DNA of 19,582 nt, from assembly GCA_038851755.1 (NCBI GenBank), contig JAWCKR010000022.1:1-19582 (forward strand). The letters run 5' to 3'. The notes under the pieces were generated by a model, which saw only the letters and a program-made list of their open reading frames with translations, had not been told where the DNA came from and did not search any database. Below are positions 6,531-19,557 of the stretch, piece by piece; the first letter of the stretch is position 1, and each line of letters begins with the position of its first letter. The DNA comes from Candidatus Hadarchaeales archaeon (GTDB lineage: Archaea; Hadarchaeota; Hadarchaeia; Hadarchaeales; WYZ-LMO6). The position numbers and the translations under genes were made by a program.

Positions 6531-7559
6531 ATGAAAGCGAACAGGAAGCTGGCAGCAGCCTTGTCCCTGGCAATGATAATGGCGACCCTGGGAACGATGG
6601 CGCCGGCAGTCGCAGGGGAAGGAAACAACGGATCCAAAACAATCACTACCAGCGTCACAATACCCCCGGGAGGAGGCAACCCTCCCATCGTGAAGTGCAA
6701 GTGGGAGCAGGACCTCACCACGGACCTGGAGGACGGTGACCCCTCGCACCTCACCCCCGGAGGCCAGTTCCTCCCGCCCTGCGTGTACCAGGGTAAGAAG
6801 ACCATCCAGTACTGGGCGGTGGTGACGGACCCGGAGGGTACGGCCACCGTGGAGGGGGTCTACGTGGACGTCTACCACCCCGACAGGAGCTTCAAGTACG
6901 AGGTGATCCTGACCAAGGTGAACAAGGAGTGCGGCATAGCGGCCTTCCAGGCCGCCTACCAGGCCGGTCTGATCACCTTCGCCGATGGCCACGACTACGA
7001 GGAGGTCCTGGACGAGCTCCAGGAGTGCCTGGCCGACGTCTGGATGGGGGTGGCGGACCTGGACTACCACCAGATGGCCGGAGACTACAGAGTGGAGGCC
7101 TACGCCTTTGACCACAGCAACAACCTCTCTGTCCCGCTGGTCAACACGTTCCTGTACGTGCCCTGTGCCTGCTGCGAGTTCGACTTCACCTCGGTCGACT
7201 ACGGCAGCGTGGACGTGTGCACGTTCAAGTGGATAGGTGGGGACAACGTCTTCGGTACCTACGACAAGCCCACCGTCAGGAACATCGGGAACGTGCCCTG
7301 CCAGATCGTGGTGGAGCAGGACGACATGGGCATGGGCCAGGACTACAACGGCAACTGGAACGTGGAGTTCGGGGCCAGGCTGGGCTGGAACGGTGCGTCC
7401 GTGATCTACGACCCATACGATGAGGTCGTGCTGCCTGACGTGCTGCCCAACTGCAACACCCAGAAGCTCGACTTCGGCATCCACGTGAAGAAGGTCCTGC
7501 CCCCCGAGTCTTACGTCGGGACGATGTGGCTCAGCTGCCAGCCGGCGCAGGCGCCCTAG
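6531..7559 (+). CDS. Secreted Cys-rich beta-sandwich protein; putative fibre/surface subunit
   Basis: Sec signal peptide MKANRKLAAALSLAMIMATLGTMAPAVA, strong SD, strongly GC3-biased codons, 11 Cys, acidic composition, Ig-like VRNIGNVP and a terminal YVGTMWL strand. No membrane anchor. Confidence 0.7.
   Translation: MKANRKLAAALSLAMIMATLGTMAPAVAGEGNNGSKTITTSVTIPPGGGNPPIVKCKWEQDLTTDLEDGDPSHLTPGGQFLPPCVYQGKKTIQYWAVVTDPEGTATVEGVYVDVYHPDRSFKYEVILTKVNKECGIAAFQAAYQAGLITFADGHDYEEVLDELQECLADVWMGVADLDYHQMAGDYRVEAYAFDHSNNLSVPLVNTFLYVPCACCEFDFTSVDYGSVDVCTFKWIGGDNVFGTYDKPTVRNIGNVPCQIVVEQDDMGMGQDYNGNWNVEFGARLGWNGASVIYDPYDEVVLPDVLPNCNTQKLDFGIHVKKVLPPESYVGTMWLSCQPAQAP
6668..7531 (+). repeat. 864-bp direct repeat, copy 1
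   Basis: Aligned by eye to 8982-9845 (offset 2314). Only two differences seen: 7330G/9644A and 7396C/9710T. Confidence 0.95.
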
Positions 7560-7679: not shown

Positions 7680-8867
7680 ATGGTAGTTTTCGTTTTGTTG
7701 ACATTTTCGCTTTGTTCCGCATTTCTCCCTCCCGTTTGTGCGGCTAAGCTTGCCCTGGTGCCCAACCAGCTGAAGATAGAGAACGCCATGAGAGGTGGAG
7801 AGTACGAAAGGATAGTTACTGTAATCACCGACGAGAACGCCAGAGTCTTCCTCCGGACCGAGGGCGTGGCGGGAGGATGGATCAGCGTGTACGAGTTTGA
7901 GAATCAGACGGCCCCGGTGGAGGAGGTAATCGCCGACGAGAATGGGAGGAGCGTCCTCTTGATCAGGATTAAAATCCCTTCCGACGCCAGCAACGGCACC
8001 TACACGGCATCCCTCATCGCGGAGGTCATCCTCTCCGGGGCTGAGAACTCGGGGGGAACAGGAGTGGGACTCAGGGCCTCGGTGGGAATCACCCTTGAGG
8101 TCACCGGGACCCAGATTCTGAGTGGGGCGGTGGAGTACATCATGGTCGAAGACACCGAGGTGGGCTATCCCCTAAGGATAGGGGTGAGGTTCCGGAACAC
8201 CGGGAACGTGGTCGCAACACCGGAAATCAGGACCACCATAACCAAGGACGGGTCCCCCTTGGACAATTTTGTCCGCGCCGAGGTTGGTGTGGCTCCTGAG
8301 AAGACCGAGACCATCACGGTGGAGTGGGACACTACGGGAAGGGAAACCGGGAGGTACGAGGCGAGCGTGGAGGTCATGCTGGGAGGGGAGGTGCTGGCGG
8401 CCGAGAATCAAGAGTTCGAGCTGTTGCCTTTCGGGACGCTGAGCAGGAGGGGGGAGCTGGTTGAGCTGGAGTATGATGGTGAGCCTTCGGTGGGCAGTAA
8501 GATAAGAATTCTAGCCACCTTCCTGAACACTGGCGAAATCGATACAAGGGCGAGGTTGGTGGGCGAGGTTCATGTTGACGGCGTCTTCACCGACAACCTC
8601 TCGAGCGATGAGAGGTGGGTGGAGCCCGGAGAAAAAGTCACGCTGAGAGCCTACTTGGGGATTGAAAAGACCGGTCGCTACGTGGTGGAGGGCTGGGTGG
8701 AATACGATGGCAAAGTGACCGAAGTAAAGGAGCTTTCCTTCAAAGTAGGGAGCGAGCCTGGCTCTGTCCTCCCCGTGGTGGTGATGGTGTTCGCAGCATT
8801 GCTGGTGGGGGGTGGACTGGTTGGGGGTAAGACCCTCTTCAGAAAGTTTTCACCGAAGGCTAAGTAG
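7680..8867 (+). CDS. Membrane-anchored multi-Ig-domain protein (DUF916/WxL-interacting or PapD-chaperone-like N-domain plus CARDB-like domains)
   Basis: Signal peptide from ATG 7680. IKIPSDASNGTYTASL..., GTGVGLRASVGITLEVTG, two FxNTG(N/E) Ig motifs, C-terminal TM plus basic tail. The family assignment is a resemblance only. Confidence 0.6.
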   Translation: MVVFVLLTFSLCSAFLPPVCAAKLALVPNQLKIENAMRGGEYERIVTVITDENARVFLRTEGVAGGWISVYEFENQTAPVEEVIADENGRSVLLIRIKIPSDASNGTYTASLIAEVILSGAENSGGTGVGLRASVGITLEVTGTQILSGAVEYIMVEDTEVGYPLRIGVRFRNTGNVVATPEIRTTITKDGSPLDNFVRAEVGVAPEKTETITVEWDTTGRETGRYEASVEVMLGGEVLAAENQEFELLPFGTLSRRGELVELEYDGEPSVGSKIRILATFLNTGEIDTRARLVGEVHVDGVFTDNLSSDERWVEPGEKVTLRAYLGIEKTGRYVVEGWVEYDGKVTEVKELSFKVGSEPGSVLPVVVMVFAALLVGGGLVGGKTLFRKFSPKAK

Positions 8868-11145
8868 CTCCAGGGAACAAGTCTTGGTGCTCTTGGTGTT
8901 GTGGGTCTCTACGACCTTGGTGATGGCATCAGCAGTGGCTGCTGAAGAAATCACAGTGGTTACTTCGGTCTTCATAGCAAAGGGAGGAGGCAACCCTCCC
9001 ATCGTGAAGTGCAAGTGGGAGCAGGACCTCACCACGGACCTGGAGGACGGTGACCCCTCGCACCTCACCCCCGGAGGCCAGTTCCTCCCGCCCTGCGTGT
9101 ACCAGGGTAAGAAGACCATCCAGTACTGGGCGGTGGTGACGGACCCGGAGGGTACGGCCACCGTGGAGGGGGTCTACGTGGACGTCTACCACCCCGACAG
9201 GAGCTTCAAGTACGAGGTGATCCTGACCAAGGTGAACAAGGAGTGCGGCATAGCGGCCTTCCAGGCCGCCTACCAGGCCGGTCTGATCACCTTCGCCGAT
9301 GGCCACGACTACGAGGAGGTCCTGGACGAGCTCCAGGAGTGCCTGGCCGACGTCTGGATGGGGGTGGCGGACCTGGACTACCACCAGATGGCCGGAGACT
9401 ACAGAGTGGAGGCCTACGCCTTTGACCACAGCAACAACCTCTCTGTCCCGCTGGTCAACACGTTCCTGTACGTGCCCTGTGCCTGCTGCGAGTTCGACTT
9501 CACCTCGGTCGACTACGGCAGCGTGGACGTGTGCACGTTCAAGTGGATAGGTGGGGACAACGTCTTCGGTACCTACGACAAGCCCACCGTCAGGAACATC
9601 GGGAACGTGCCCTGCCAGATCGTGGTGGAGCAGGACGACATGGACATGGGCCAGGACTACAACGGCAACTGGAACGTGGAGTTCGGGGCCAGGCTGGGCT
9701 GGAACGGTGTGTCCGTGATCTACGACCCATACGATGAGGTCGTGCTGCCTGACGTGCTGCCCAACTGCAACACCCAGAAGCTCGACTTCGGCATCCACGT
9801 GAAGAAGGTCCTGCCCCCCGAGTCTTACGTCGGGACGATGTGGCTTGGGTGCAGATCTGACTTTGCTGTGAACTCCAGTGGGACCATTTGGATACCCCAC
9901 GAGTGGGAGTGTTTAGAGGTGTGGACGGGGAGTGCCTCAACGGGCGTTTACGGTTTACCCGACATTCCCGGTGCGCCGGTAGGATGGTCCCTGTTGGAGA
10001 TGTGGACTGAGGGCGCCTCTTCCCCGGCTCGTTGGGGGCTCCTGGAACTCTCAGCGGGCCTTCCGGGGGGCTCCGGCTCCAGCGCATCGAGGGAATGGCG
10101 TCTGGTAGATTCATGTGGAGGCGGAGCCCAAGCCACGACTGAGGTCGTTTCTACAGGAGATTCCAAGTCTCCTGGGGTCCAGGGTCTGGGCCTCACGAAC
10201 TGGATGAGCGAACCCACGACCACCCTTACCGTGGAGACCCTTCCCATAAGAGCGGGGGTCTACGTGGACGACCTTTACTGGGGGAGGGCTCCACAGACGA
10301 GGGAGGTGGAGGCAGGCGTTCACACGGTTTTCTTTGGGGATTGTCCTGACTACCTGACTCCCGCACCTCAAACCTCGATTATACCGCAGGGTGAGAGTAG
10401 AACCGTTACTGGAATCTACACGGAGATACCGGAGGAGTTGATTGAAAGCGAATCGTCCCCAGTTCATCTCCCCTCCATAAGAGCTGGCGAGAGCGTGGCC
10501 GTAGAGCTGGAGGGCACGGCTATCACTGAGATAACGATGGGGTTGAGGAGGGGGGTAGAGAACGTGTGGTTGATGGTTCAGCAGCTGACCGACCTGCCCG
10601 CCGGTTGGGTGGTAGGGGCCCCAGGGCTCCCCTATCGGTATCTGAACATAGTGGTTGAGAATCTAATCGATCCATACCTTGACACCGCGCTGATAGTTTT
10701 CAGGGTGGAGAAGTCTTGGGTGGAGGAAGCTGACATAGACCCAGCCACTGTGGTCCTTTGGAGGTGGAATCCTTCCAGCAAGGAGTGGGAATCTTTGTAT
10801 ACCGTGATGATAGGAGAGGACGGCACCCGCTACACCTATCGTGCGGAGTCTTCGGATCTGTCCCTGTTTTCCGTATCGGGGTTACCCGTGAGTCTTACTT
10901 CGCTGACACTGCCGGAGCCTCCGGGGATAATGGTGGTCGCATTGCTGGCAGGGACCTTCGTAATGGCGTTGGCAGTAGTGTCGATTACGGGAAGCTTGGT
11001 CAAGAGGGGGATCATGGCGCACCGTATTCGTGGTGCAAAAGCTTGGAGGGTGAGGTGGTGGGTTCTCGCCTGGATGGCGTACTTCGTGGAGAGAATACGG
11101 ACCGTGGGCGCTTCAATCCTCTCTGGAGACATCTCTCCCGACTGA
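8812..11145 (+). CDS. Membrane-anchored surface protein: copy of the 6531 subunit domain + Trp-repeat linker + PEGA-like + PGF-pre-PGF domain + C-terminal TM
   Basis: Signal peptide ending ASAVAA; 288 aa near-identical to the 6531 protein. TLTVETLP..AGVYVDD..WG.AP....AGVHTV is PEGA-like. YRYLNI...FRVEKSWV...IDPATVVLWRW...WESL...YTYRAESSDLSLFSVSG is PGF-pre-PGF. Start uncertain (8812, 8884 or 8887). Confidence 0.78.
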   Translation: MDWLGVRPSSESFHRRLSSSREQVLVLLVLWVSTTLVMASAVAAEEITVVTSVFIAKGGGNPPIVKCKWEQDLTTDLEDGDPSHLTPGGQFLPPCVYQGKKTIQYWAVVTDPEGTATVEGVYVDVYHPDRSFKYEVILTKVNKECGIAAFQAAYQAGLITFADGHDYEEVLDELQECLADVWMGVADLDYHQMAGDYRVEAYAFDHSNNLSVPLVNTFLYVPCACCEFDFTSVDYGSVDVCTFKWIGGDNVFGTYDKPTVRNIGNVPCQIVVEQDDMDMGQDYNGNWNVEFGARLGWNGVSVIYDPYDEVVLPDVLPNCNTQKLDFGIHVKKVLPPESYVGTMWLGCRSDFAVNSSGTIWIPHEWECLEVWTGSASTGVYGLPDIPGAPVGWSLLEMWTEGASSPARWGLLELSAGLPGGSGSSASREWRLVDSCGGGAQATTEVVSTGDSKSPGVQGLGLTNWMSEPTTTLTVETLPIRAGVYVDDLYWGRAPQTREVEAGVHTVFFGDCPDYLTPAPQTSIIPQGESRTVTGIYTEIPEELIESESSPVHLPSIRAGESVAVELEGTAITEITMGLRRGVENVWLMVQQLTDLPAGWVVGAPGLPYRYLNIVVENLIDPYLDTALIVFRVEKSWVEEADIDPATVVLWRWNPSSKEWESLYTVMIGEDGTRYTYRAESSDLSLFSVSGLPVSLTSLTLPEPPGIMVVALLAGTFVMALAVVSITGSLVKRGIMAHRIRGAKAWRVRWWVLAWMAYFVERIRTVGASILSGDISPD
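8982..9845 (+). repeat. 864-bp direct repeat, copy 2
   Basis: Near-identical to 6668-7531, with two non-synonymous differences (G>D, A>V). Confidence 0.95.
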
Positions 11146-11333: not shown

Positions 11334-11858
11334 ATGAGAACAGCGATGGCCGTGTTTGGAGCACTCATGTTGGCTCTCGCTCTGACCGGTGTGGCTTTCG
11401 CCCACTGGACCGATTCCCTGTACATCAGCGGCACGGTCAACACGGGAACCTTTGGAGCTGAGCTCAGCGTGGGGACGGGTCATGATAGTGAGCCACCCTG
11501 CAAGGATGTCAGCTCTATTTCGGGCACCCTCTCGGAGGACGGAAAGACTATAACAGTGACGGTCACCAACGCCTATCCCTGTATCGACTACTACCTGCCC
11601 ATAGATGTGCACTGCACGGGTACCGTTCCCCTGATCATAGAGAGCATAGTGATAGACAGGGGAACCCTGCCGGAGAACACCACGCTGGAGATTATCCCGG
11701 CGATGATAGATTTCCCCTTAGAAGTGGGTACGCAGTTACACTACTGTGATGCGGCTTACGGGGAGTTGCACGTGCACCTGGACGAGGACGCAGAGGAGAA
11801 CACAAACTACACCTTCAGCGTAACCATCAACGTGGTGCAGTGGAACTACTACGACTGA
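11334..11858 (+). CDS. SipW-cognate signal peptide protein; TasA/CalY-like putative major fibre subunit
   Basis: h-region then GVAFA|HWTDSLYISGTVNTG, the SipW-class pattern A-x-(F/W)-(T/S)-D...G. Also NAYP, GTVP and a terminal VVQWN strand. Confidence 0.8.
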   Translation: MRTAMAVFGALMLALALTGVAFAHWTDSLYISGTVNTGTFGAELSVGTGHDSEPPCKDVSSISGTLSEDGKTITVTVTNAYPCIDYYLPIDVHCTGTVPLIIESIVIDRGTLPENTTLEIIPAMIDFPLEVGTQLHYCDAAYGELHVHLDEDAEENTNYTFSVTINVVQWNYYD

Positions 11859-11890
11859 GGGGTTCTAGGAGATTTGAAGGGGGAGTACAG

Positions 11891-13366
11891 TTGAGGAACA
11901 CAAAGCTAGCCGTACTGCCGATACTGCTGCTGGTAGGGACGCTCCTGACCGGTGTGGCCTTCGCCCACTGGTCGGAGTCCCTCCTGCTCACGGGGAGCGT
12001 GGCCACGGGATTGTTGGACTGGCAGTTCACTGGCGTGGGCCACTTGGACCCAGGCCCACCCGACAGCGTGAGGGACTACCACTGCCGGGACAACTTCGAG
12101 GGGCCTCCTCCCTACTACTGGCAGGGGGACAAGGATGTGGGCTACACCACAGCGGTGATAACGGAGGATCCCCACGTCATCGAGGTGACCTTGAACAATG
12201 TGTACCCCAGCTACTTCAACTCCATAAGTGTGTACGCAAAGAACACGGGGAGCATTCCCTTGATCATAGAGAGGGCCATCATCGATGGGAATGTGGTGAT
12301 GGACTTCGACGAGAAAGTCAGGCTGGACCTCGATGGGGACGGGAAGGATGACTTGGAGATATGGTGGAAGGCCAACATCTTTGGCGTTCAGCTGGAGCCA
12401 GGGGAAGATGGACCTCAGACGAGCTTCTGGGTTCACGTTCTGCAGGATGCGCCTAGGGGTGAGTCCCTGGAGTTCACCATCGAGCTGGTGGCGGTGCAGT
12501 GGAATTACTCCGAGCATCCCCCCGCACCGAAGCCCACCATAGGACTTTCGCCACCAATTCTGACCTTCAGCGCCGTACTCGGTGGACCCAATCCACTGCC
12601 GCAGAACTTTACCGTTTCCAACCTGGGTCCTGCCGGGACCACGCTTAACTGGACGGTCACGGATAATGCAGCCTGGCTTTCGCTCTCCCCGACGAGCGGT
12701 TCCCTGCCAGGAGGGAGTTCCGAGCCTATGGCTGCGAACGTGAGCATCGCTGGGCTGGGAGTAGGGACATACTATGCCACGGTCACGGTTTCGGATCCCA
12801 ACGCCACGAACGATCCGCAGACTGCAACCGTGGTGCTGGTGATCTCTGCACCCAGTGTCATAGCGGATAACTTGGACGTCAATGGCGGGCTCGACACGTC
12901 GGGAGGATACTGGTGTGGAAATAATTGGTGTGCTAACCCACACACCCTGACGCCCTCAGATTTGGAAAGTCTGGAGAACAGCAACAACATTCGGTATCAA
13001 AGCTATGGCGTGTGGAGCGAGGACTATTCCAACAACGAGTACCTCGATTTAGAGTTCGAAAACATCCCCTGCGGGGCCACGGTGAACAGCGCTGTGCTCA
13101 AGTTCGAGTGGCAGAGAACCACGAAGGTGGATAATGCCAGGCTGAGGATATGGAACGGCTCCAGCTGGAGTGCGCACTACTATCTTCCCATGCCAACTCC
13201 CAACAATGACACCACCGTGACGATAGACCTGAAAGGACTCTACGGCATAGACACTTGCTACGAGGTCAACAACTTGAAAATCAGATTCCAGGCTTCAAGC
13301 AGCGACTGGTCCAATGCTTATACCAAGCACGATTGGGTCGAGGTTCAAGTGACCTATACACTGTGA
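11891..13366 (+). CDS. TasA-like domain + BACON/Ig-like domain + C-terminal beta domain; putative minor or tip adhesin subunit
   Basis: TTG 11891 after a GGGGAG SD. GVAFA|HWSESLLLTGSVATG, NVYP, NTGSIP, AVQWN; DLDGDGKDD Ca-loop; WTVTDNAAWLSLSPTSGSL is BACON-like. Confidence 0.75.
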   Translation: MRNTKLAVLPILLLVGTLLTGVAFAHWSESLLLTGSVATGLLDWQFTGVGHLDPGPPDSVRDYHCRDNFEGPPPYYWQGDKDVGYTTAVITEDPHVIEVTLNNVYPSYFNSISVYAKNTGSIPLIIERAIIDGNVVMDFDEKVRLDLDGDGKDDLEIWWKANIFGVQLEPGEDGPQTSFWVHVLQDAPRGESLEFTIELVAVQWNYSEHPPAPKPTIGLSPPILTFSAVLGGPNPLPQNFTVSNLGPAGTTLNWTVTDNAAWLSLSPTSGSLPGGSSEPMAANVSIAGLGVGTYYATVTVSDPNATNDPQTATVVLVISAPSVIADNLDVNGGLDTSGGYWCGNNWCANPHTLTPSDLESLENSNNIRYQSYGVWSEDYSNNEYLDLEFENIPCGATVNSAVLKFEWQRTTKVDNARLRIWNGSSWSAHYYLPMPTPNNDTTVTIDLKGLYGIDTCYEVNNLKIRFQASSSDWSNAYTKHDWVEVQVTYTL

Positions 13367-13379
13367 ACAAACCAAACCA

Positions 13380-13396
13380 TTTTTGTTTTTATTTTT
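13380..13396 (+). terminator. Archaeal oligo-T terminator
   Basis: TTTTTGTTTTTATTTTT about 14 nt after the stop at 13366. Confidence 0.6.
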
Positions 13397-13425
13397 CGTA
13401 AAAACCCGGTCAAAACCGTGATGGA

Positions 13426-15333
13426 ATGAAAGAAGAAGGAAGGGCGGCGGGAAGGAAGGCGGCTTTCGTCCTAGTCCTTACCCTCTTCAACTACTTCTTC
13501 CTGAACCTCTTTCGTCCTGGGGGATGGATGGCCTATCTCCTGCCCTCCCTTTGCTGGGGTTTCCTTGCCCTGGTTGCCCTGAAGCTTTTTGGCTTGAGCA
13601 GGATAAGGTCCTGGTTTAACCCCAAGGTATCCCTAACTGCCGCGTGTGTTTCAATCCTTTATGTGCTGGTCCTACTGAACTTGGGCCTCTTCACGGGATT
13701 CGGGAAGAGTCCCTACTCCTTCGCTCCTTTGCCTCTCCTCACCAATGCGTTACTTGCCTTTTCCACTTTGATGGGCATGGAGTTCTCCCGGGCATACTTG
13801 GTAAAGACGGTGGGCAGGAACAGACCCTTCCTGGTCTTCGGGCTTGTCACCCTCCTGTACGCCCTGTTGGGTATTTCCACCGCCAGACTCTTTCAGCTTG
13901 GAGATCCCCTAGCCGCTACCAAGTTCTTTGGGGTCGGTTTTCTGCCCCTCTTAGCGGAAAGCCTTCTTGTCACCCATCTGGCGCTCTTGGGCGGTCCGGT
14001 GGCCTCCCTGGCCTACCGCGCCCCCCTCACCATCTTCTGGTGGTTCTCCCCCATCCTCCCCCGTCTCTCGTGGGGGATGGAGGCCTTTCTAGGGGTGATG
14101 GTACCGACGGCCGGGTTCTTCTTGATCAACCTCTACACTTCCCCTTTCACCCTGCGGAGGCAGGGTTTAACCCGGGAACCAGGAGGATTCGGCGGGTTCA
14201 GGAAATCCCAAGCCAGAGGTCTGGTGTTAACCTCGGTTCTCTGTGTCCTGATGGTGTGGGTTTCCACGGGGCTCCTGGGCCTCAGGGTGACGACCGTCTT
14301 GAGCGGGAGTATGAGTCCCAGCTTGGAGGTGGGGGATGTGGTGGTGGTGAGGGAGGTTTCCCCCTCATCCGTGGGGCCAGGTGACGTGATTCAGTTCGGG
14401 CGAGAAGGGGAGGCTGTAATCCACAGGGTGGTGGAGGTAAGGCAGGAGGGAGGAAACTGGTTCTTCATCACTAAGGGAGATGCCAATTCTTCCCCAGATC
14501 CCACCCCCGTCTCTTCCTCTCAGCTGATGGGAAAGATGGTCCTGCAGATTCCCAAGGTTGGGTGGATAGTCATCTTCGTGAAGGAGGCTACCTTGAGCCT
14601 GTGGTCGTTCTTGCAGGAGCACTTGGCTGTCTTCCTTTCTTTGCCCATCCTGACGATTTCTTTTCTCCTAGCCCGCAAATACAGGAGGGGGCGGGTGGGA
14701 TGGAGCAGAAGGGTCCCCCCCGAGAGATGGAGTGCTCCCTTTTCCCTCCTCATGCTCTTCCTAGCGGTGGGAGGAATAGCCTACGCCCACTGGAGCGAGC
14801 CTCTCTACGTGTCGGGCACGGTGGAGACGGGAAGCTGGGGGTCAGAGATAGAATGTTACGGGGTCTGGAGCTTCCCGTGCTGGCAGGTGAACTCCTGGCT
14901 TTCGGAGGACAACCGCACCCTCAACCTACGCTACTGTTACACCTATCCCTGCGATACGGTCTTGGTCGTTCTCAAGATTCACAACATGAAAACCGTACCT
15001 GTATTCTTCGAGGGCTTCCGGTACCAGTTCTCCCCTTCCTCCATGGAGGACGGTTTCCACATTTACGAGTGGTTCTTCGGTCCATACGGTGATGGTTGCC
15101 AGCAGGGAGACTGCTGCTGGTGGAAGGACCATCTCTGCGGGGACGGATGCGGAGGTCTTGATGAGAAGACTTGCTGCTGGATGAGTTCTTGCTGTCGCAG
15201 ACCGCCCATCCAGCTCGATCCCTGCCAGAGCCTGATAGCCGTGGTGGAGCTGAAAAGTTGCACTTGGTCCTGCGGTTTCACCCTCTCCATAAGCATAGAG
15301 GATGTATGCTGGGCCTGCCTGGGAAGAGCGTGA
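13426..15333 (+). CDS. sipW: Polytopic membrane domain + SipW/Sec11-type signal peptidase I (S26B) fused to a C-terminal Cys-rich TasA-like substrate
   Basis: VLSGSMSP..VGD, VIHRV (Ser/His dyad), TKGDAN. Downstream and in frame: GGIAYA|HWSEPLYVSGTVETG, then LSEDNRTL, YTYPC, KTVP, IQLDPCQ, which parallel the 11334 protein. Confidence 0.85.
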   Translation: MKEEGRAAGRKAAFVLVLTLFNYFFLNLFRPGGWMAYLLPSLCWGFLALVALKLFGLSRIRSWFNPKVSLTAACVSILYVLVLLNLGLFTGFGKSPYSFAPLPLLTNALLAFSTLMGMEFSRAYLVKTVGRNRPFLVFGLVTLLYALLGISTARLFQLGDPLAATKFFGVGFLPLLAESLLVTHLALLGGPVASLAYRAPLTIFWWFSPILPRLSWGMEAFLGVMVPTAGFFLINLYTSPFTLRRQGLTREPGGFGGFRKSQARGLVLTSVLCVLMVWVSTGLLGLRVTTVLSGSMSPSLEVGDVVVVREVSPSSVGPGDVIQFGREGEAVIHRVVEVRQEGGNWFFITKGDANSSPDPTPVSSSQLMGKMVLQIPKVGWIVIFVKEATLSLWSFLQEHLAVFLSLPILTISFLLARKYRRGRVGWSRRVPPERWSAPFSLLMLFLAVGGIAYAHWSEPLYVSGTVETGSWGSEIECYGVWSFPCWQVNSWLSEDNRTLNLRYCYTYPCDTVLVVLKIHNMKTVPVFFEGFRYQFSPSSMEDGFHIYEWFFGPYGDGCQQGDCCWWKDHLCGDGCGGLDEKTCCWMSSCCRRPPIQLDPCQSLIAVVELKSCTWSCGFTLSISIEDVCWACLGRA

Positions 15334-15373
15334 GGGCATGTACCTATCTATTTAGGAGGAGGAGTGAAGGAGG

Positions 15374-16432
15374 ATGGTGGGGCTAAAGCGTTTCTTGAAG
15401 AGGTTGGGAAAGGGCTCCTTCCTAATCATCTCTTTTTTCCTCTTGCTTGACGCCCTCTTGCTTCTGGGGTACTCCCATTCTAGGCCAGAGACGGAGAACC
15501 GAACCCAGGTCCTTCTCTCTTACCGGCACCGCGGGGAATACGATTACGTGGCGCATTTGAAGCCCAACGAACTCTACGACAACAGGCTGGAACTCTCAGC
15601 CGGGGAGGGAACGGTTTACCTTCCCCTGCTGGAGAACCTCTCCCTCACCTTCCGCTATACCTTCTTCTCCACGGAAAAGGGCACTCTTTCTTCCTCCTAT
15701 CGGGTGGAGGTGGTGCTCTCCACCCAGGCTTGGAGCAAGAGCTATCCCTGGCTGGAAAACTCAGTCCAGGCCCCGGGAAACACCTTAGAGTTTTCCACGG
15801 CTTTGGTTCTCGACCCTTCTTGGGTGGAAGAGAGGATGGAGGCGATAAGCTGGGAAACGGGTACTTCCACCCGCAGCTACGACGTGCAGGTGAGGACATC
15901 GGTCCACACGGTTGCCCAGACGGGGAAGGGCACGGTGGACGAATCCTTCTCACCTCAGCTCACCCTTCACTTCGTGAGGGACCCAGCCAAGGGGGAGTAC
16001 CTCACGGTGGAGGGACTGGAGGAAAGGAAGGAGGGAGCGATTATTCATCCAGAGACTCTTCACCGTGGAGAGATAGGAACCCTCAGGAGGATTTCCTATG
16101 TACTGCTGGCGTTCGCACTGTTGTGCGTTTTTCTCACGGGCTGGGCCTACTTCTCGGCTGAGAAACCAAGGAAGGTGGAGGAGCTGGTGGAGCCCCTCCG
16201 GGAGCTGGTGGTGGAACTCTCGGAGGAGCCGAAGGTCCCGGCAGGGGGGACCACGGTGAGGGTGGGAAGGATGGAGGACCTGGGCAAGATTGCCGAAGGG
16301 CTGATGAAGCCGGTCCTGCACGTGAGGCTCCCCTCACACGATGGTGAAGAGCACCTTTTCTTGGTCCTTGACGGCTCCGTGAGGTACGAGCACCGGGTGA
16401 AGGCGCTGGGGGGCATAGTGGTAAAGAGGTAA
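15374..16432 (+). CDS. DUF5305-like membrane protein
   Basis: N-terminal TM, Y..HRGEYDYVA.LKPNELY, extracellular beta domain, second TM, and a cytoplasmic V..MEDL.KIAE.L.KPVLH...DGSVRY tail. This family is typically found next to S26 peptidases. Confidence 0.65.
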   Translation: MVGLKRFLKRLGKGSFLIISFFLLLDALLLLGYSHSRPETENRTQVLLSYRHRGEYDYVAHLKPNELYDNRLELSAGEGTVYLPLLENLSLTFRYTFFSTEKGTLSSSYRVEVVLSTQAWSKSYPWLENSVQAPGNTLEFSTALVLDPSWVEERMEAISWETGTSTRSYDVQVRTSVHTVAQTGKGTVDESFSPQLTLHFVRDPAKGEYLTVEGLEERKEGAIIHPETLHRGEIGTLRRISYVLLAFALLCVFLTGWAYFSAEKPRKVEELVEPLRELVVELSEEPKVPAGGTTVRVGRMEDLGKIAEGLMKPVLHVRLPSHDGEEHLFLVLDGSVRYEHRVKALGGIVVKR

Positions 16433-16489
16433 CACCTTTTCACTCCTGGCGTCTTTTGTTTCCCAAGAGAACCGTGGTTTACCCATCCC

Positions 16490-16495
16490 TTATAA
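16490..16495 (+). promoter_or_regulatory. TATA box (TTATAA) for a probably leaderless protease gene
   Basis: Lies about 24 nt upstream of ATG 16519, and there is no SD before that ATG. Confidence 0.55.
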
Positions 16496-16518
16496 CACCC
16501 GCCATCAAAAATTATTCG

Positions 16519-17334
16519 ATGAAACTCCTGGCGGGTGTGCTGGCCTTTCTCCTTTTGCTGGCCTTCCCCCTCCCCGTCCTGGCGGCCTCTGGGGAGGAGG
16601 ACCCCCTCCCGCAGGAGTGGGTGGGGAAGCACAAGATCGTGGAACACTTCGGGAAGCTGAGCAGGATGGTCCTCGTCCGCTATGTGGGTGAGAGACTCTC
16701 CGAGCCCTCGGAGGTGGTGGAGATAGGGGACCCGGACAACGATGGGGCCGTGGATGCTTACGCGCTTCTGGGTGTGTGGTGGGATCTCTCCAAGTATCCC
16801 GGCGGGGTTCCCTACACGGTGAACCCCACTGTGGCGGCCAGGTCCTACAGGTTGAAGGAGGGTGAAGTGGTGGGGGCCGTCCAGAGGGCCTTCGAGAACT
16901 GGGACGATGCGGTGGAGAGGGAGCTGTACAACAACAGGGTCACGGTGAACTGGAAGGCCAGCGCCAGCCCCAGGCGTCCGGACTACCGGAACGTGGTTAC
17001 GTGGGGAAGGCTGCAGAAGGGGGTGGTGGCCGTCACCTACCTCTGGTACCTCACGGATACGGGAGAACTCGTGGACGCGGATATAGTGTTTAACTCATAC
17101 TACAGATGGGGGATAGACCCCGACGGCGAGGGCACGGGGTACCAGCTGAGCGGGGCTTTCGACCTCCAGAACATAGCCACCCATGAGACCGGTCACTTCA
17201 CGGGCCTCGACGACCTCTATGACGAGCCCTACTGGGCCATGACCATGTACGGCTATGCGGACTTCGGAGAGACGTGCAAGGTTTCCTTGGAGCCTGGGGA
17301 TGTGGCTGGGGTCAGGGCGATTTACGGGTCCTAG
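16519..17334 (+). CDS. Secreted matrixin-like (metzincin, M10-like) zinc metalloprotease
   Basis: Signal peptide MKLLAGVLAFLLLLAFPLPVLA; AFENWD, DADIVFN, FDLQNIATHETGHFTGLDD, Met-turn TMY, LEPGDVAGVRAIYG. Confidence 0.9.
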   Translation: MKLLAGVLAFLLLLAFPLPVLAASGEEDPLPQEWVGKHKIVEHFGKLSRMVLVRYVGERLSEPSEVVEIGDPDNDGAVDAYALLGVWWDLSKYPGGVPYTVNPTVAARSYRLKEGEVVGAVQRAFENWDDAVERELYNNRVTVNWKASASPRRPDYRNVVTWGRLQKGVVAVTYLWYLTDTGELVDADIVFNSYYRWGIDPDGEGTGYQLSGAFDLQNIATHETGHFTGLDDLYDEPYWAMTMYGYADFGETCKVSLEPGDVAGVRAIYGS

Positions 17335-17494: not shown

Positions 17495-18385
17495 TTGGCC
17501 GGTCTGGGAACCTGGGGGAAACCTTCTGAGAACAGGGAGGCTTGGAAAGAGGAGCTTCTGCTGAGGCTGGAGGGAAGAGCCCCTCCTCCTCCGCCCCCCG
17601 AGGAGGTGCCGACGCCGCCACCACCACCGGAGGAAAAAAGGAGGCTCCAGCGGCTCAGGCAGGTTCCCTCCAGGGCCTGGGCGAAGTTCTTCGGCTTCAA
17701 TGTCTCCCTGTGGATGAGGGTGAACAGGCACAGGCTGATCTTCGACCTCGTGCTTTCCTTCCTCATCCTCCTCCTCGTCCTCTTCTCACGCCTTCCCTCT
17801 TGGTCTCTCTGGCCCCTGGTGGGCTTTCTGGTCTTCCTCATGATCGTTTTCTCCCTTCCCTCCTCTTTCATGCTTGGTTTGCGTTACTCCATCCTGGCCG
17901 TGTTCGTCGTGTTGGTCTTCATAGTCATCGTTCTGGGGGTCTGGTTCCTCGTCTCACCGGCGGTCGTGATGATGGCCATGCCGCCGCCACCCGAACCTCC
18001 CACGGCCGCCGGTGAGTACGGGGTGAAGGTGGGGAAGGTCACCCTCTGGGACTATGACATCGAGGGACCGGTGGAGTACCAGGGGGTGCCCTGTACCCGC
18101 ATCACGGCAAGGAAGGCCAAGATCTCCGGGCAGGAGATGACGGGGGGAGGACTGGGATTGGGAGCCTCCTCCATGGAGGTGGAGAACTTCCAGGCTTACG
18201 TCACCTACATGAGGGGGACAGGCAGCGCCTTCGGCATGCGCGTTCGGTCGGGCTGGAAGGGGGGTAGCTCTCCTCCCTGGACGGTGGGGCTCCTGGGGAA
18301 TCCCACCACCTTCTCGGATGTCACCATGCACATGGTCTCGATGGAGGGAAGGAGGATCACGCTCAAGGGGGTGGAGATGGGTTGA
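17495..18385 (+). CDS. Membrane protein with Pro-rich linkers and an extracellular beta domain (DUF6230/DUF6114-associated-like)
   Basis: Poly-Pro tract, about 3 TM segments, PPPPEPP linker, and a C-terminal ...VENFQAYVTYMRG...FSDVTMHMVSMEGRRITLKGVEMG. TTG start uncertain; family call tentative. Confidence 0.55.
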   Translation: MAGLGTWGKPSENREAWKEELLLRLEGRAPPPPPPEEVPTPPPPPEEKRRLQRLRQVPSRAWAKFFGFNVSLWMRVNRHRLIFDLVLSFLILLLVLFSRLPSWSLWPLVGFLVFLMIVFSLPSSFMLGLRYSILAVFVVLVFIVIVLGVWFLVSPAVVMMAMPPPPEPPTAAGEYGVKVGKVTLWDYDIEGPVEYQGVPCTRITARKAKISGQEMTGGGLGLGASSMEVENFQAYVTYMRGTGSAFGMRVRSGWKGGSSPPWTVGLLGNPTTFSDVTMHMVSMEGRRITLKGVEMG

Positions 18386-19557
18386 GCCTCCGCAGACTCC
18401 TCCCGGTGGTCTTACTCCTTTTCTCCCTCCTGCTGGCGGTCCCCCTCGTGCTGAAGGGGAGGGTGTACGTGATGCAGGGGGGATCCATGGAGCCCTCCAT
18501 CTCCAACGGCGACCTAGTCCTCCTGAAGCCGGCCGGGGAGATACAGGAGGGCGACGTGGTGGTGTACAGGAACATCTGCCACCGGGTGCTCTCCGTGGGA
18601 GAGGAGACCCTCACTACCAAAGGGGACGCCAACCCTGACCCCGATCCCTGGGTGGTGCCCAGGAATGCGGTGGTGGGGAAGGTGGACAGAGTGATTCCCG
18701 GACTGGGTTCCCTCTTCCTCTTTGCCCGTTCTCCCCTTGGTATAGCCCTCTTCGCGGGTCTCTTCTTCCTCCTAGCTTTCACCTGGGCCATGCCAGAGGT
18801 CAAGGTGGGCAGGCCGCGTCTCACCCTCAGGGAGGGGCTCATGGCCCTCCCCTCGGTGGGGCTGGCCGTAGCCTGGTATTTCTCCAGCGGCCTGTTAAGG
18901 CTGCTCTTCTTCACCCTTCTCTGCTTTTCCGTCCCGCTCTTCCTGAACTCCCTTTCCTCCCTCAAACGCCTCAGGGAGAGGTGGCCCTTCTGGGCCATCG
19001 TGCTCGCCTTCCTGGGTGGGGCCTGGATCCTGACTTCCTGCAGGGTGGTGCCTGGCCTGCTCTACCTCCACCATCCGGACCTCTTCTTCACCCCCATCCT
19101 GGCCCTTCTCACCATGGGTCTGGCGGGGGCCATGCTCTGGCTCCGCTCGGACCGACTTACTTCCATCATAGGAGTGGTGCTCATCGTCGTGGGCATCATC
19201 ACCTTCTTCTCCATGCCGATAGGGGAGGTTTTCGCCTCTCTCTTCACCATCGTGGCAGGGGCGCACGCCCTAGCCTGGCAGCCTCCATCCACCCCCGGGA
19301 TGTCTTCCCTGGTGGAGCTCCCCCAGCGCGAGGAGGAGAGGGAGGAGGAAAGGGAGGTCCCGCCCCTGGAAGAGGAGAGTGCTCCCCCCGCTCTGGAGGA
19401 GAGGAGAGGAGGGAGGGGGAGTGGGCTGGAGGAGGTGGTGGGCAGGATTCATTCCCTTTTGCGCTCGTCGTTGGAAAGGAGGGGAGAAGAACCCGCAAGC
19501 ACGGAGAGCGGTCAAGCCCCGATCCACGACGGAGAAAACCCAGAGGTGAAGGAATGA
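18382..19557 (+). CDS. Second S26B signal peptidase I fused to a DUF6114-like membrane domain
   Basis: GGSMEPSISNGD, ICHRV, TKGDANPDPDPW. C-half RERWPFWAIVLAFLGGAWIL...IVAGAHALAWQP resembles DUF6114. TTGA overlap with the previous gene. Confidence 0.8.
   Translation: MSLRRLLPVVLLLFSLLLAVPLVLKGRVYVMQGGSMEPSISNGDLVLLKPAGEIQEGDVVVYRNICHRVLSVGEETLTTKGDANPDPDPWVVPRNAVVGKVDRVIPGLGSLFLFARSPLGIALFAGLFFLLAFTWAMPEVKVGRPRLTLREGLMALPSVGLAVAWYFSSGLLRLLFFTLLCFSVPLFLNSLSSLKRLRERWPFWAIVLAFLGGAWILTSCRVVPGLLYLHHPDLFFTPILALLTMGLAGAMLWLRSDRLTSIIGVVLIVVGIITFFSMPIGEVFASLFTIVAGAHALAWQPPSTPGMSSLVELPQREEEREEEREVPPLEEESAPPALEERRGGRGSGLEEVVGRIHSLLRSSLERRGEEPASTESGQAPIHDGENPEVKE

Follow-up and report, generated by a model that had tools for sequence, protein, structure and literature searches.

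How chaperone-free donor-strand fibres such as those of TasA, AbpA and AbpX are started, oriented and held on archaea is an open question in the papers cited below, and in the portions of these papers available to us the tips and anchors of AbpX- and TasA-type fibres have been proposed from structure predictions only. The closest described systems are the AbpX loci, which, according to the available part of the preprint describing them (bioRxiv 10.64898/2026.01.04.697558), combine a ten-helix signal peptidase with an adjacent DUF5305 gene, and in which a DUF5305-peptidase protein is the only fusion mentioned. In the tapA-sipW-tasA locus of Bacillus subtilis three separate genes encode a minor starter or anchor (TapA), a dedicated S26 peptidase of the endoplasmic reticulum (ER)/archaeal type and the major subunit, and it has been proposed that TapA donates an N-terminal strand for TasA, and AbpB one for AbpA (available portions of PMC9245690 and PMC10151520). 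The haloarchaeal tafi locus (TafA/C/E/F, TafD, TafG) encodes a donor-strand fibre that is built from a tip, an adapter, a core and a base anchored in the membrane, together with its own peptidase, TafD, whose processing of a subunit was shown by deletion, and a DUF5305 partner, TafG (available portion of PMC11821415); DUF5305 itself has been proposed, in the available parts of the preprint and of PMC11821415, to be an accessory subunit of such a peptidase. Here, we analysed a stretch of 19,582 nucleotides from an uncultured Candidatus Hadarchaeales archaeon of hot springs (contig JAWCKR010000022.1; "the window" in what follows), in which an archaeal-type signal peptidase and the preprotein of an AbpX-like fibre subunit are encoded by one gene in a single reading frame.

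The locus shares with AbpX loci the subunit family, the Trp at position 2 and the acidic residue at position 4 of the mature subunits, the extra peptidase helices, DUF5305 and variable minor or tip-like subunits; whereas peptidase and subunits are separate genes there, here a subunit preprotein forms the C-terminus of the peptidase. With tapA-sipW-tasA it has in common a dedicated peptidase accompanied by a major and a minor subunit, but apart from the separation of the three Bacillus genes it differs in that the peptidase is no SipW equivalog and the subunits have no Peptidase_M73 match. The likeness to tafi lies in the donor-strand fibre (a predicted one here), the dedicated peptidase and the DUF5305 partner, and the difference in that tafi relies on Tat export and on an anchor that is a separate protein with a C-terminal helix (PMC11821415, as far as available). 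The AbpX-type locus as such is known, while the covalent fusion, its fixation in one clade and the exchange of passengers behind a constant strand are undescribed in the literature searched, where we did not find any peptidase-substrate fusion, although the supplements of the preprint may show further architectures. The words "fused" and "fusion" are absent from PMC9245690 and PMC11821415, and in PMC9715654 "fused" occurs a single time, in reference to two unrelated genes that adjoin each other. It should be noted that the subunit set of the preprint was, in the part available, restricted to 100-350 residues, so that a fusion of 635 residues would escape its survey.

The fused gene (13426..15333, forward strand) stays open for 635 codons and joins the peptidase to a C-terminal subunit preprotein without an intervening stop, the His codon that opens the C-terminal domain (the passenger) lying at 14788, as the first-pass annotation of this DNA had claimed. 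The order of elements that it gave after the S26 domain (a membrane helix, a basic loop, a hydrophobic stretch and IAYA; see Table 1) was confirmed from the sequence. The predicted peptidase site A-Y-A is the end of a hydrophobic stretch of 20 residues, at residue 454, and is therefore internal and not N-terminal. The same cleavage motif is present, again in keeping with the annotation, in both free subunits encoded upstream: IAYA/HWSEPLYVSGTVETG in the fused protein compares with VAFA/HWTDSLYISGTVNTG and VAFA/HWSESLLLTGSVATG (the slash marks the predicted cut).

In order of similarity, a homologue search with residues 260-635 as query returned 141 proteins at E<=0.001, of which the best 120 were examined. 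Among these 120 the fused junction and a passenger occur in the top 35 (P0001-P0035, some of them fragments) and are lacking in the other 85; the matched proteins are named "signal peptidase I" of Hadarchaeales or Hadesarchaea archaea, and the fused ones come from JGI, NCBI, ENA and Logan. In a maximum-likelihood tree of 117 peptidase cores, which omits the N-terminal fragments P0007, P0020 and P0026, the fused forms fall in one clade with SH-aLRT support of 100, where 32 of 34 rows are fused, against none of 83 outside. The two unfused proteins nested in this clade, P0036 (432 residues) and P0040 (418 residues), are both without the C-terminal domain, P0040 stopping inside the basic loop (…RWRRKGLGS), and could have arisen by a secondary split or loss, or be errors of gene calling. 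Full-length fusions occur in six of the 65 species genomes of the order (G000, G062, G012, G013, G015 and G007), G062 being from the same genus as the window (74% identity), and a fragment of the fusion lies at a contig end in G005. In relatives, too, the fused gene comes after free subunit genes, of which G062, G013 and G012 have two each and G015, on a short contig, one. With the window's protein as query, neither its N-terminal nor its C-terminal part was matched in three further genomes of the genus (88-93% complete), so the locus is patchy. Relatives as distant as 37% identity over residues 260-635 still have the uninterrupted frame, as do those of the full-length alignment, at identities of at least 45%.

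The orthologs thus keep the fusion on which the first-pass reading, a self-processing polyprotein, was built, which supports that reading in part, and contigs assembled from other data agree that no stop was lost. Logan contigs of runs X1 and X2 show no difference over 13300-15400, though both runs may be the source samples of the window, and run X4, which belongs to a different study, has a contig over 13303-15400 that keeps the frame despite 112 substitutions (40 of 108 were listed individually), its one inserted base, at 13385, being upstream of the start codon. Among the runs listed as containing the sequence none is recorded as RNA; X4 and X5 are labelled metatranscriptomic and flagged as probably DNA. 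We conclude that the gene is a fixed fusion found in one clade of Hadarchaeales archaea. When a free-subunit profile was scored against 7999 candidates among longer proteins, it gave three matches, none of them a peptidase, which is weak evidence on fusions elsewhere.

Concerning the identity of the peptidase, residues 271-388 match TIGR02228, the archaeal/ER-type signal peptidase I (S26B), at a score of 99 bits where the cut-off is 51.85 (E 2.3e-28), and in a profile search the domain matches SEC11C (7p2q_A, E 1.3e-13); Pfam S24 and S26 matches are below their cut-offs (for PF00717, 18.4 vs 23.3 bits). The S26 assignment of the earlier annotation stood, the peptidase being of the archaeal/ER type, but under its label "SipW-type" identity with the SipW equivalog was rejected, since NF046067 scored 77.1 bits against a cut-off of 190. 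Ser295, His333 and Asp352, which we take to be the catalytic residues, are invariant in all 21 aligned sequences and align with the SEC11A/C motifs SGSMEP, HRV and KGDNN; in the fused protein the Ser stands in SGSM, the His (not a Lys) in HRV and the Asp in GDAN, and this invariance makes the enzyme look active. The S26 domain of the AlphaFold2 model matches the folds of SEC11A/C, LepB, SpsB, LexA and UmuD. A signal-peptidase fold dedicated to surface-fibre assembly is also known from SipA/LepA of Streptococcus pyogenes pili (4n31, Z 10.5); SipA has no catalytic residues and is a chaperone-like factor, whereas in the fused protein these residues are invariant.

The model of the 635-residue protein (mean pLDDT 64.8) has eight N-terminal helices followed by helices 259-279, 400-421 and 433-450, the last of which is the internal signal peptide; the other ten identify the enzyme with the ten-helix signal peptidase I of AbpX loci, as described in the available part of the preprint (bioRxiv 10.64898/2026.01.04.697558). 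In the genome of the window (1.25 Mb, 93% complete) the peptidase family is matched five times, twice in the window, once in C17 and twice in C15, so the fused enzyme is a dedicated paralogue. The second match in the window (18382-19557; TIGR02228, E 1e-19) is likewise of the archaeal signal peptidase I type, but its layout is reversed: it starts with the catalytic domain, and a multi-helix C-terminal domain follows that resembles DUF6114 weakly (26.2 bits, below the cut-off of 27.9).

The eight-helix domain (residues 1-250) has no Pfam match at E<=10. Its top structural match is the CAAX protease Rce1 (4cad_F, Z 12.8, rmsd 4.7, 220 of 250 residues, Foldseek probability 0.99), a Z value of a size that helical bundles can attain from helix arrangement alone. 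CPBP/Rce1 intramembrane proteases conserve the motifs EExxxR, FxxxH and HxxxN/D. In the 21-sequence alignment E119, R122, Y197, R198 and N235 are among many invariant residues, but there is no invariant His, and of those motifs only E119/R122 (in ExxR spacing) and N235 have invariant counterparts; together with the lack of a CPBP match in Pfam at the threshold above, this led us to reject CPBP/Rce1 identity at motif level. The likeness in fold is a lead only, and the domain may form a lateral membrane pocket that receives signal peptides.

The passenger and the free subunits belong, judging by sequence comparison, to the AbpX branch of the TasA superfamily. A profile of nine free subunits matches a chain of the solved Pyrodictium abyssi AbpX fibril (9sj2_C) with E 1.2e-12, and a profile of 21 fused proteins matches the same chain weakly (E 0.0025), AbpX residue 1 aligning to the junction H/W and the donor strand HWSEPLYVSGTVETG to mature AbpX residues 1-15, QWSETLSLSATISTG. 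Residues 401-635 of the fused protein are 41% identical to the 174-residue subunit over 100 residues (E 5e-20), a likeness that is far beyond chance and indicates homology, so that for the passenger the AbpX assignment is strong by transitivity. The 508-residue subunit is 29% identical to the 174-residue one (E 5e-16) and carries a BACON-like Ig domain (PF19190, E 2.8e-6), ends in a beta domain and is without a membrane anchor at its C-terminus. Neither residues 451-635 nor the mature 174-residue subunit matched any Pfam family at E<=10, PF12389 Peptidase_M73 (TasA/camelysin) included. The term "TasA-like" used for the passenger before is therefore right for the superfamily, through solved AbpX, but not for the Pfam TasA/Peptidase_M73 family.

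In the model of the whole protein the passenger forms nine beta strands with pLDDT of 70-88. Structure searches with this model gave no AbpX, TasA or AbpA chain among the matches listed for residues 470-632, where the best matches, an AP2 appendage domain (Z 7.3) and SGBP-B (Z 7.1), are uninformative. A complex prediction of residues 455-635 with the mature 174-residue subunit (score 0.00, mark 0.32) was used neither for nor against any reading. The passenger contains 18 Cys and has a Cys-rich insert (GCQQGDCCWWKDHLCGDGCGGLDEKTCCWMSSCCRR) at residues 556-592 (15091-15201), where model confidence is low; G062 has 18 Cys as well, G012, G013 and G015 one or two, and metal binding or disulfide bonds are possible functions of the insert.

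We then compared the junctions of the 35 fused proteins. Counting from the predicted site, position -5 is Gly in 35 of 35, -3 is Ala in 34 and Ser in one, -2 is Tyr in 34 and -1 is Ala in 15 or Ser in 20; after the site, +1 is His in 32, +2 is Trp in all 35, +4 is Asp or Glu in 27, Gln in seven and Asn in one, and +10 is Gly in 34. P0030 and P0033 read AYA/TW, and G007 has Val at -3. The hydrophobic core drifts while these recognition positions stay, from which the site looks cleavable, and in none of the 35 is there a spacer between the hydrophobic helix and the strand.

What follows the strand is far more variable. An AbpX-like beta domain is the passenger in the clade of the window and in most others, but a small Ig-like domain also occurs, P0029-P0033 have a domain of about 120 residues with the motif ITPRTLNL; P0025 and P0026 carry SpaA-like and SdrD-B-like domains (PF17802, PF17210), P0024 and P0028 a domain with the motif QGFWSTHP, P0034 yet another domain, and G007 and G005 a lectin-like domain. 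P0021 and P0030/P0033 have peptidases on very short branches and different passenger domains, so the exchange must be recent. In these alignments only the donor strand is constant, which puts the breakpoint of the exchange just behind it. The available part of the preprint (bioRxiv 10.64898/2026.01.04.697558) gives the same description of the predicted tip proteins of AbpX loci. That the C-terminal domains are swapped suggests that their function varies and is probably exercised at the cell surface.

A scan of one genome per species gave 80 loci, from Dehalococcoidia, Bacillota, Bathyarchaeota, Thermoproteota, Archaeoglobales and others. An hmmsearch with subunit and peptidase profiles found no open reading frame with both in these 80 loci, and subunit genes stand mostly upstream of the peptidase, as in many of the loci with a full-length ten-helix peptidase (for example L047, L049-L053, L055, L062 and L065-L067). 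The exception is Bathyarchaeota archaeon B24 (LUCB01000022.1, L048), where a subunit gene lies directly downstream of a peptidase that is 46% identical to that of the window (E 1e-88) and ends …RRGRRWKRRRWVR-TGA. At 1030-1057 of this locus the GTG start of the subunit overlaps the TGA stop of the peptidase (GTGA), and the GGAGG repeats that precede the GTG also encode the Arg-rich tail of the peptidase. The subunit has its own signal peptide (…LLTICGVAYT/HWSD…) and is 32% identical to the window's passenger over 180 residues, covering the whole domain (E 3e-24). From this split form we deduce that the ancestor of the fused part was a secreted preprotein of the ordinary kind, whose translation was coupled to that of the peptidase; on these sequences, a small frame change would join B24-like peptidase and subunit genes. 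Both this split form and the passenger exchange are points that go beyond the first-pass annotation.

The sequences show the architecture, its conservation, the homology of the parts, the retained catalytic and recognition residues, the exchange and the split relative; the topology, the cleavage, its action in cis or in trans and the fibre role given next are inferred. The chain would insert with its N-terminus inside, the S26 domain would come to lie outside after helix 9, helix 10 would lead inward and the basic loop would stay inside. The eleventh helix would then act as a normal signal-peptide core, bringing the A-Y-A/H-W site and the passenger outward, near Ser295 and His333. That both the S26 domain and the A454/H455 site face outward, on the catalytic side, as had been proposed before, agrees with the helix count of the model and with the positive-inside rule, and is a prediction from these. 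Internal signal peptides of viral polyproteins, for instance flavivirus C-prM, are similar in that a helix, a basic loop and a second helix lead to a small-x-small site that is cut on the outer or lumenal face; there the peptidase is a separate one of the host, whereas in the fused protein it is within the polyprotein. A cut by the same or a neighbouring molecule would release some 181 residues as a subunit that now begins with the donor strand, and the signal peptide would remain as helix 11 of the enzyme. The freed strand would enter the groove of the major, 174-residue subunit, which suggests that the passenger is a starter, tip or minor subunit, made 1:1 with the peptidase at the place where the major subunits mature.

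On balance we consider it somewhat more likely than not that the site is processed, setting free a subunit that starts the fibre or is a minor part of it. What favours cutting at A454/H455 is that the catalytic residues and small residues at both -3 and -1 have been retained, that no linker occurs, that the fused part stems from a cleavable preprotein and that the passenger varies as tips do. Several observations nevertheless weigh against this reading. Residues 403-470 of the model have pLDDT <50, which gives no information on whether the site reaches the active site, and G-x-A-Y-[AS] could be kept for helix packing and not for cutting, the Tyr at -2 (34 of 35) being no requirement of the peptidase. 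AbpX-like domains are confined in the genome of the window to three proteins, the two free subunits and the fused one, and none is C-terminally anchored, so that the sole membrane-tethered copy is the fused one, which fits an anchor. The passenger is also less acidic (pI 4.67, 11.6% D+E) than the mature 174-residue subunit (pI 4.09, 15.2%), the values usual in the AbpX family being about 4 and about 15%. Since three signal peptidase I matches exist in the genome besides the two of the window, other enzymes could process the free subunits. Finally, recombinant AbpX with an extra N-terminal Met polymerised, according to the available part of the preprint (bioRxiv 10.64898/2026.01.04.697558), so a native free N-terminus is not strictly needed for strand donation.

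If the cut occurs, this would be a prokaryotic signal peptidase with its own internal signal-peptide substrate, which is undescribed in the literature searched. A peptidase joined to one subunit suggests a built-in way to start or hold the fibre and offers a direct handle on its initiation, and it marks the subunit that adjoins or is fused to the peptidase as a special paralogue; all carriers are uncultured archaea. A bolder version, which we put forward as a doubtful one, is a self-priming machine, in which the first substrate would be pre-threaded at the active site and a cut in cis would free one starter per enzyme. If this were true, the signal peptide would become a permanent eleventh helix before the enzyme turns to the major subunits, the order and stoichiometry of fibre initiation would be encoded in one polypeptide and the exchangeable C-terminal domain would set the binding target of the fibre tip.

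The alternative that survives best, unlikely in our view yet to be taken seriously, is that the protein is not cut and that the passenger, tethered through helix 11, is the membrane anchor or base of the fibre, either by taking up into its groove the strand of the final free subunit, as has been proposed for TafF, or by donating its strand, as has been proposed for TapA. In its favour are the lack of any C-terminally anchored AbpX-like protein in the genome of the window and the full AbpX-like beta domain that is fused in this clade, and it would fit with the tafi model, which puts a membrane-anchored subunit-like protein at the fibre base (available portion of PMC11821415). Elsewhere candidate anchors are encoded separately: the Hadarchaeales loci G005:C35, G002:C48 and G007:C68 have an anchored AbpX-like protein, and among bacterial relatives L061 and L064 have LPxTG-like ends and L049 a C-terminal helix with a basic tail. 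However, G005 and G007 possess the fused peptidase together with the separate anchored protein, so in these two the passenger is not needed as an anchor, and the pattern "fused peptidase or separate anchored subunit, never both" had to be rejected. A permanent anchor, moreover, has no need of A-x-A, yet small residues are kept at -3 and -1 in 35 of 35; many fused domains are small, not AbpX-like and probably without a groove; and no spacer separates the helix from the Trp at +2, although in AbpX this Trp docks between neighbouring subunits (bioRxiv 10.64898/2026.01.04.697558, as far as available).

Considerably less probable is that an internal start in the basic loop makes the C-terminal part alone, also or mainly, the long fusion being the by-product of a lost stop. 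An AGGAGG in the coding region of the loop (14683-14688) stands six bases before an in-frame GTG (14695-14697, Val424), and a start there would yield MGWSRRVPPERW ahead of the hydrophobic core and AYA, which together look like any signal peptide. In four of the six loci examined there is a start-type codon 31-33 codons before the site, and in B24 the subunit starts in exactly that region. Against this, codon 424 is not kept as Val, Leu or Met in the 21-sequence alignment, where Ser and Arg are common, and the AGG Arg codons of a basic loop produce such motifs by themselves. The frame, furthermore, is kept in distant relatives and in the X4 strain, which argues for selection on its continuity.

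We regard it as slightly more improbable still that the tethered signal peptide and strand are a pseudo-substrate, regulating the peptidase by sitting in its active site, with the C-terminal domain as sensor or lid. There are precedents in fold: LexA, UmuD and lambda repressor (S24) share the catalytic fold (Z 8-10) and hold enzyme and scissile bond in one chain, and cleavage can occur in cis in LexA and in trans in UmuD. The product helix would, judging from the sequence, also remain attached to the enzyme after any cut. Unlike the fused protein, the S24 proteins are soluble, use a Ser-Lys dyad, have the site N-terminal to the domain and have no part in secretion. What speaks against a regulatory role is that the entire donor strand is conserved as in free subunits, beyond the cleavage region, and that the fused domains look like those of surface proteins or adhesins. 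That a stop lost or a frame shifted in assembly or sequencing created the fusion, in favour of which we found nothing beyond the unfused P0040 and P0036, is refuted for practical purposes by the independent fused homologues, genomes and contigs.

Table 1. Coordinates of the fused gene's parts, of the neighbouring fibre genes and of candidate anchors in related loci. Positions are those of the window unless another locus is given; the slash marks the predicted cut.
Feature	Position	Strand	Remarks
N-terminal membrane domain	13426..14175	+	residues 1 to ~250; eight predicted helices (AlphaFold2); strongly conserved
Ninth membrane helix	14200..14262	+	residues 259-279 (model helix); preceded by a basic loop; predicted to lead the chain to the outside, where the catalytic domain follows
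S26 signal peptidase I catalytic domain, archaeal/ER-type	14236..14589	+	residues 271-388; TIGR02228
Catalytic-motif codons	Ser295 14308-14310; His333 14422-14424; Asp352 14479-14481	+	
Tenth membrane helix	14623..14673	+	residues ~400-416 (model helix 400-421); predicted to return the chain to the cytoplasmic side
Basic cytoplasmic loop (predicted), RKYRRGRVGWSRRVPPER	14674..14727	+	residues 417-434; putative n-region of the internal signal peptide
Internal signal-peptide h/c region (predicted), WSAPFSLLMLFLAVGGIAYA	14728..14787	+	residues 435-454; eleventh helix (model 433-450); ends GGIAYA
Predicted donor strand, HWSEPLYVSGTVETG	14788..14832	+	residues 455-469; Trp at position 2, Glu at position 4
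Fused C-terminal domain (passenger)	14788..15330	+	residues 455-635; 181 aa; AbpX-like beta domain
AbpX-like major subunit preprotein	11334..11858	+	174 aa; signal peptide ends VAFA; mature start HWTDSLYISGTVNTG at residue 24
AbpX-like minor subunit	11840..13366	+	508 aa from the listed GTG; junction VAFA/HWSESLLLTGSVATG (VAFA/HWSE)
DUF5305 protein	15374..16432	+	PF17231, E 8.2e-14
Candidate fibre anchors	L045 3841-5166 (G005); L046 1412-2707 (G002); L127 191-1516 (G007)		AYA/HWSETL; C-terminal helix and basic tail; 431-441 aa

Between the DUF5305 gene and the second peptidase of the window lie two further genes, one for a secreted matrixin-like metalloprotease (16456-17334; PF00413, E 5.6e-8) and one for a membrane protein of 296 residues without a family match (17495-18385). 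Upstream of the subunit genes, a near-identical domain of about 300 residues (GGGNPPIVKCKWEQDL … GTMWL) is common to the genes at 6531-7559 and 8812-11145, and the product of the longer one has a PGF-pre-PGF domain in addition (TIGR04213, E 1.9e-21) and ends in a hydrophobic tail.

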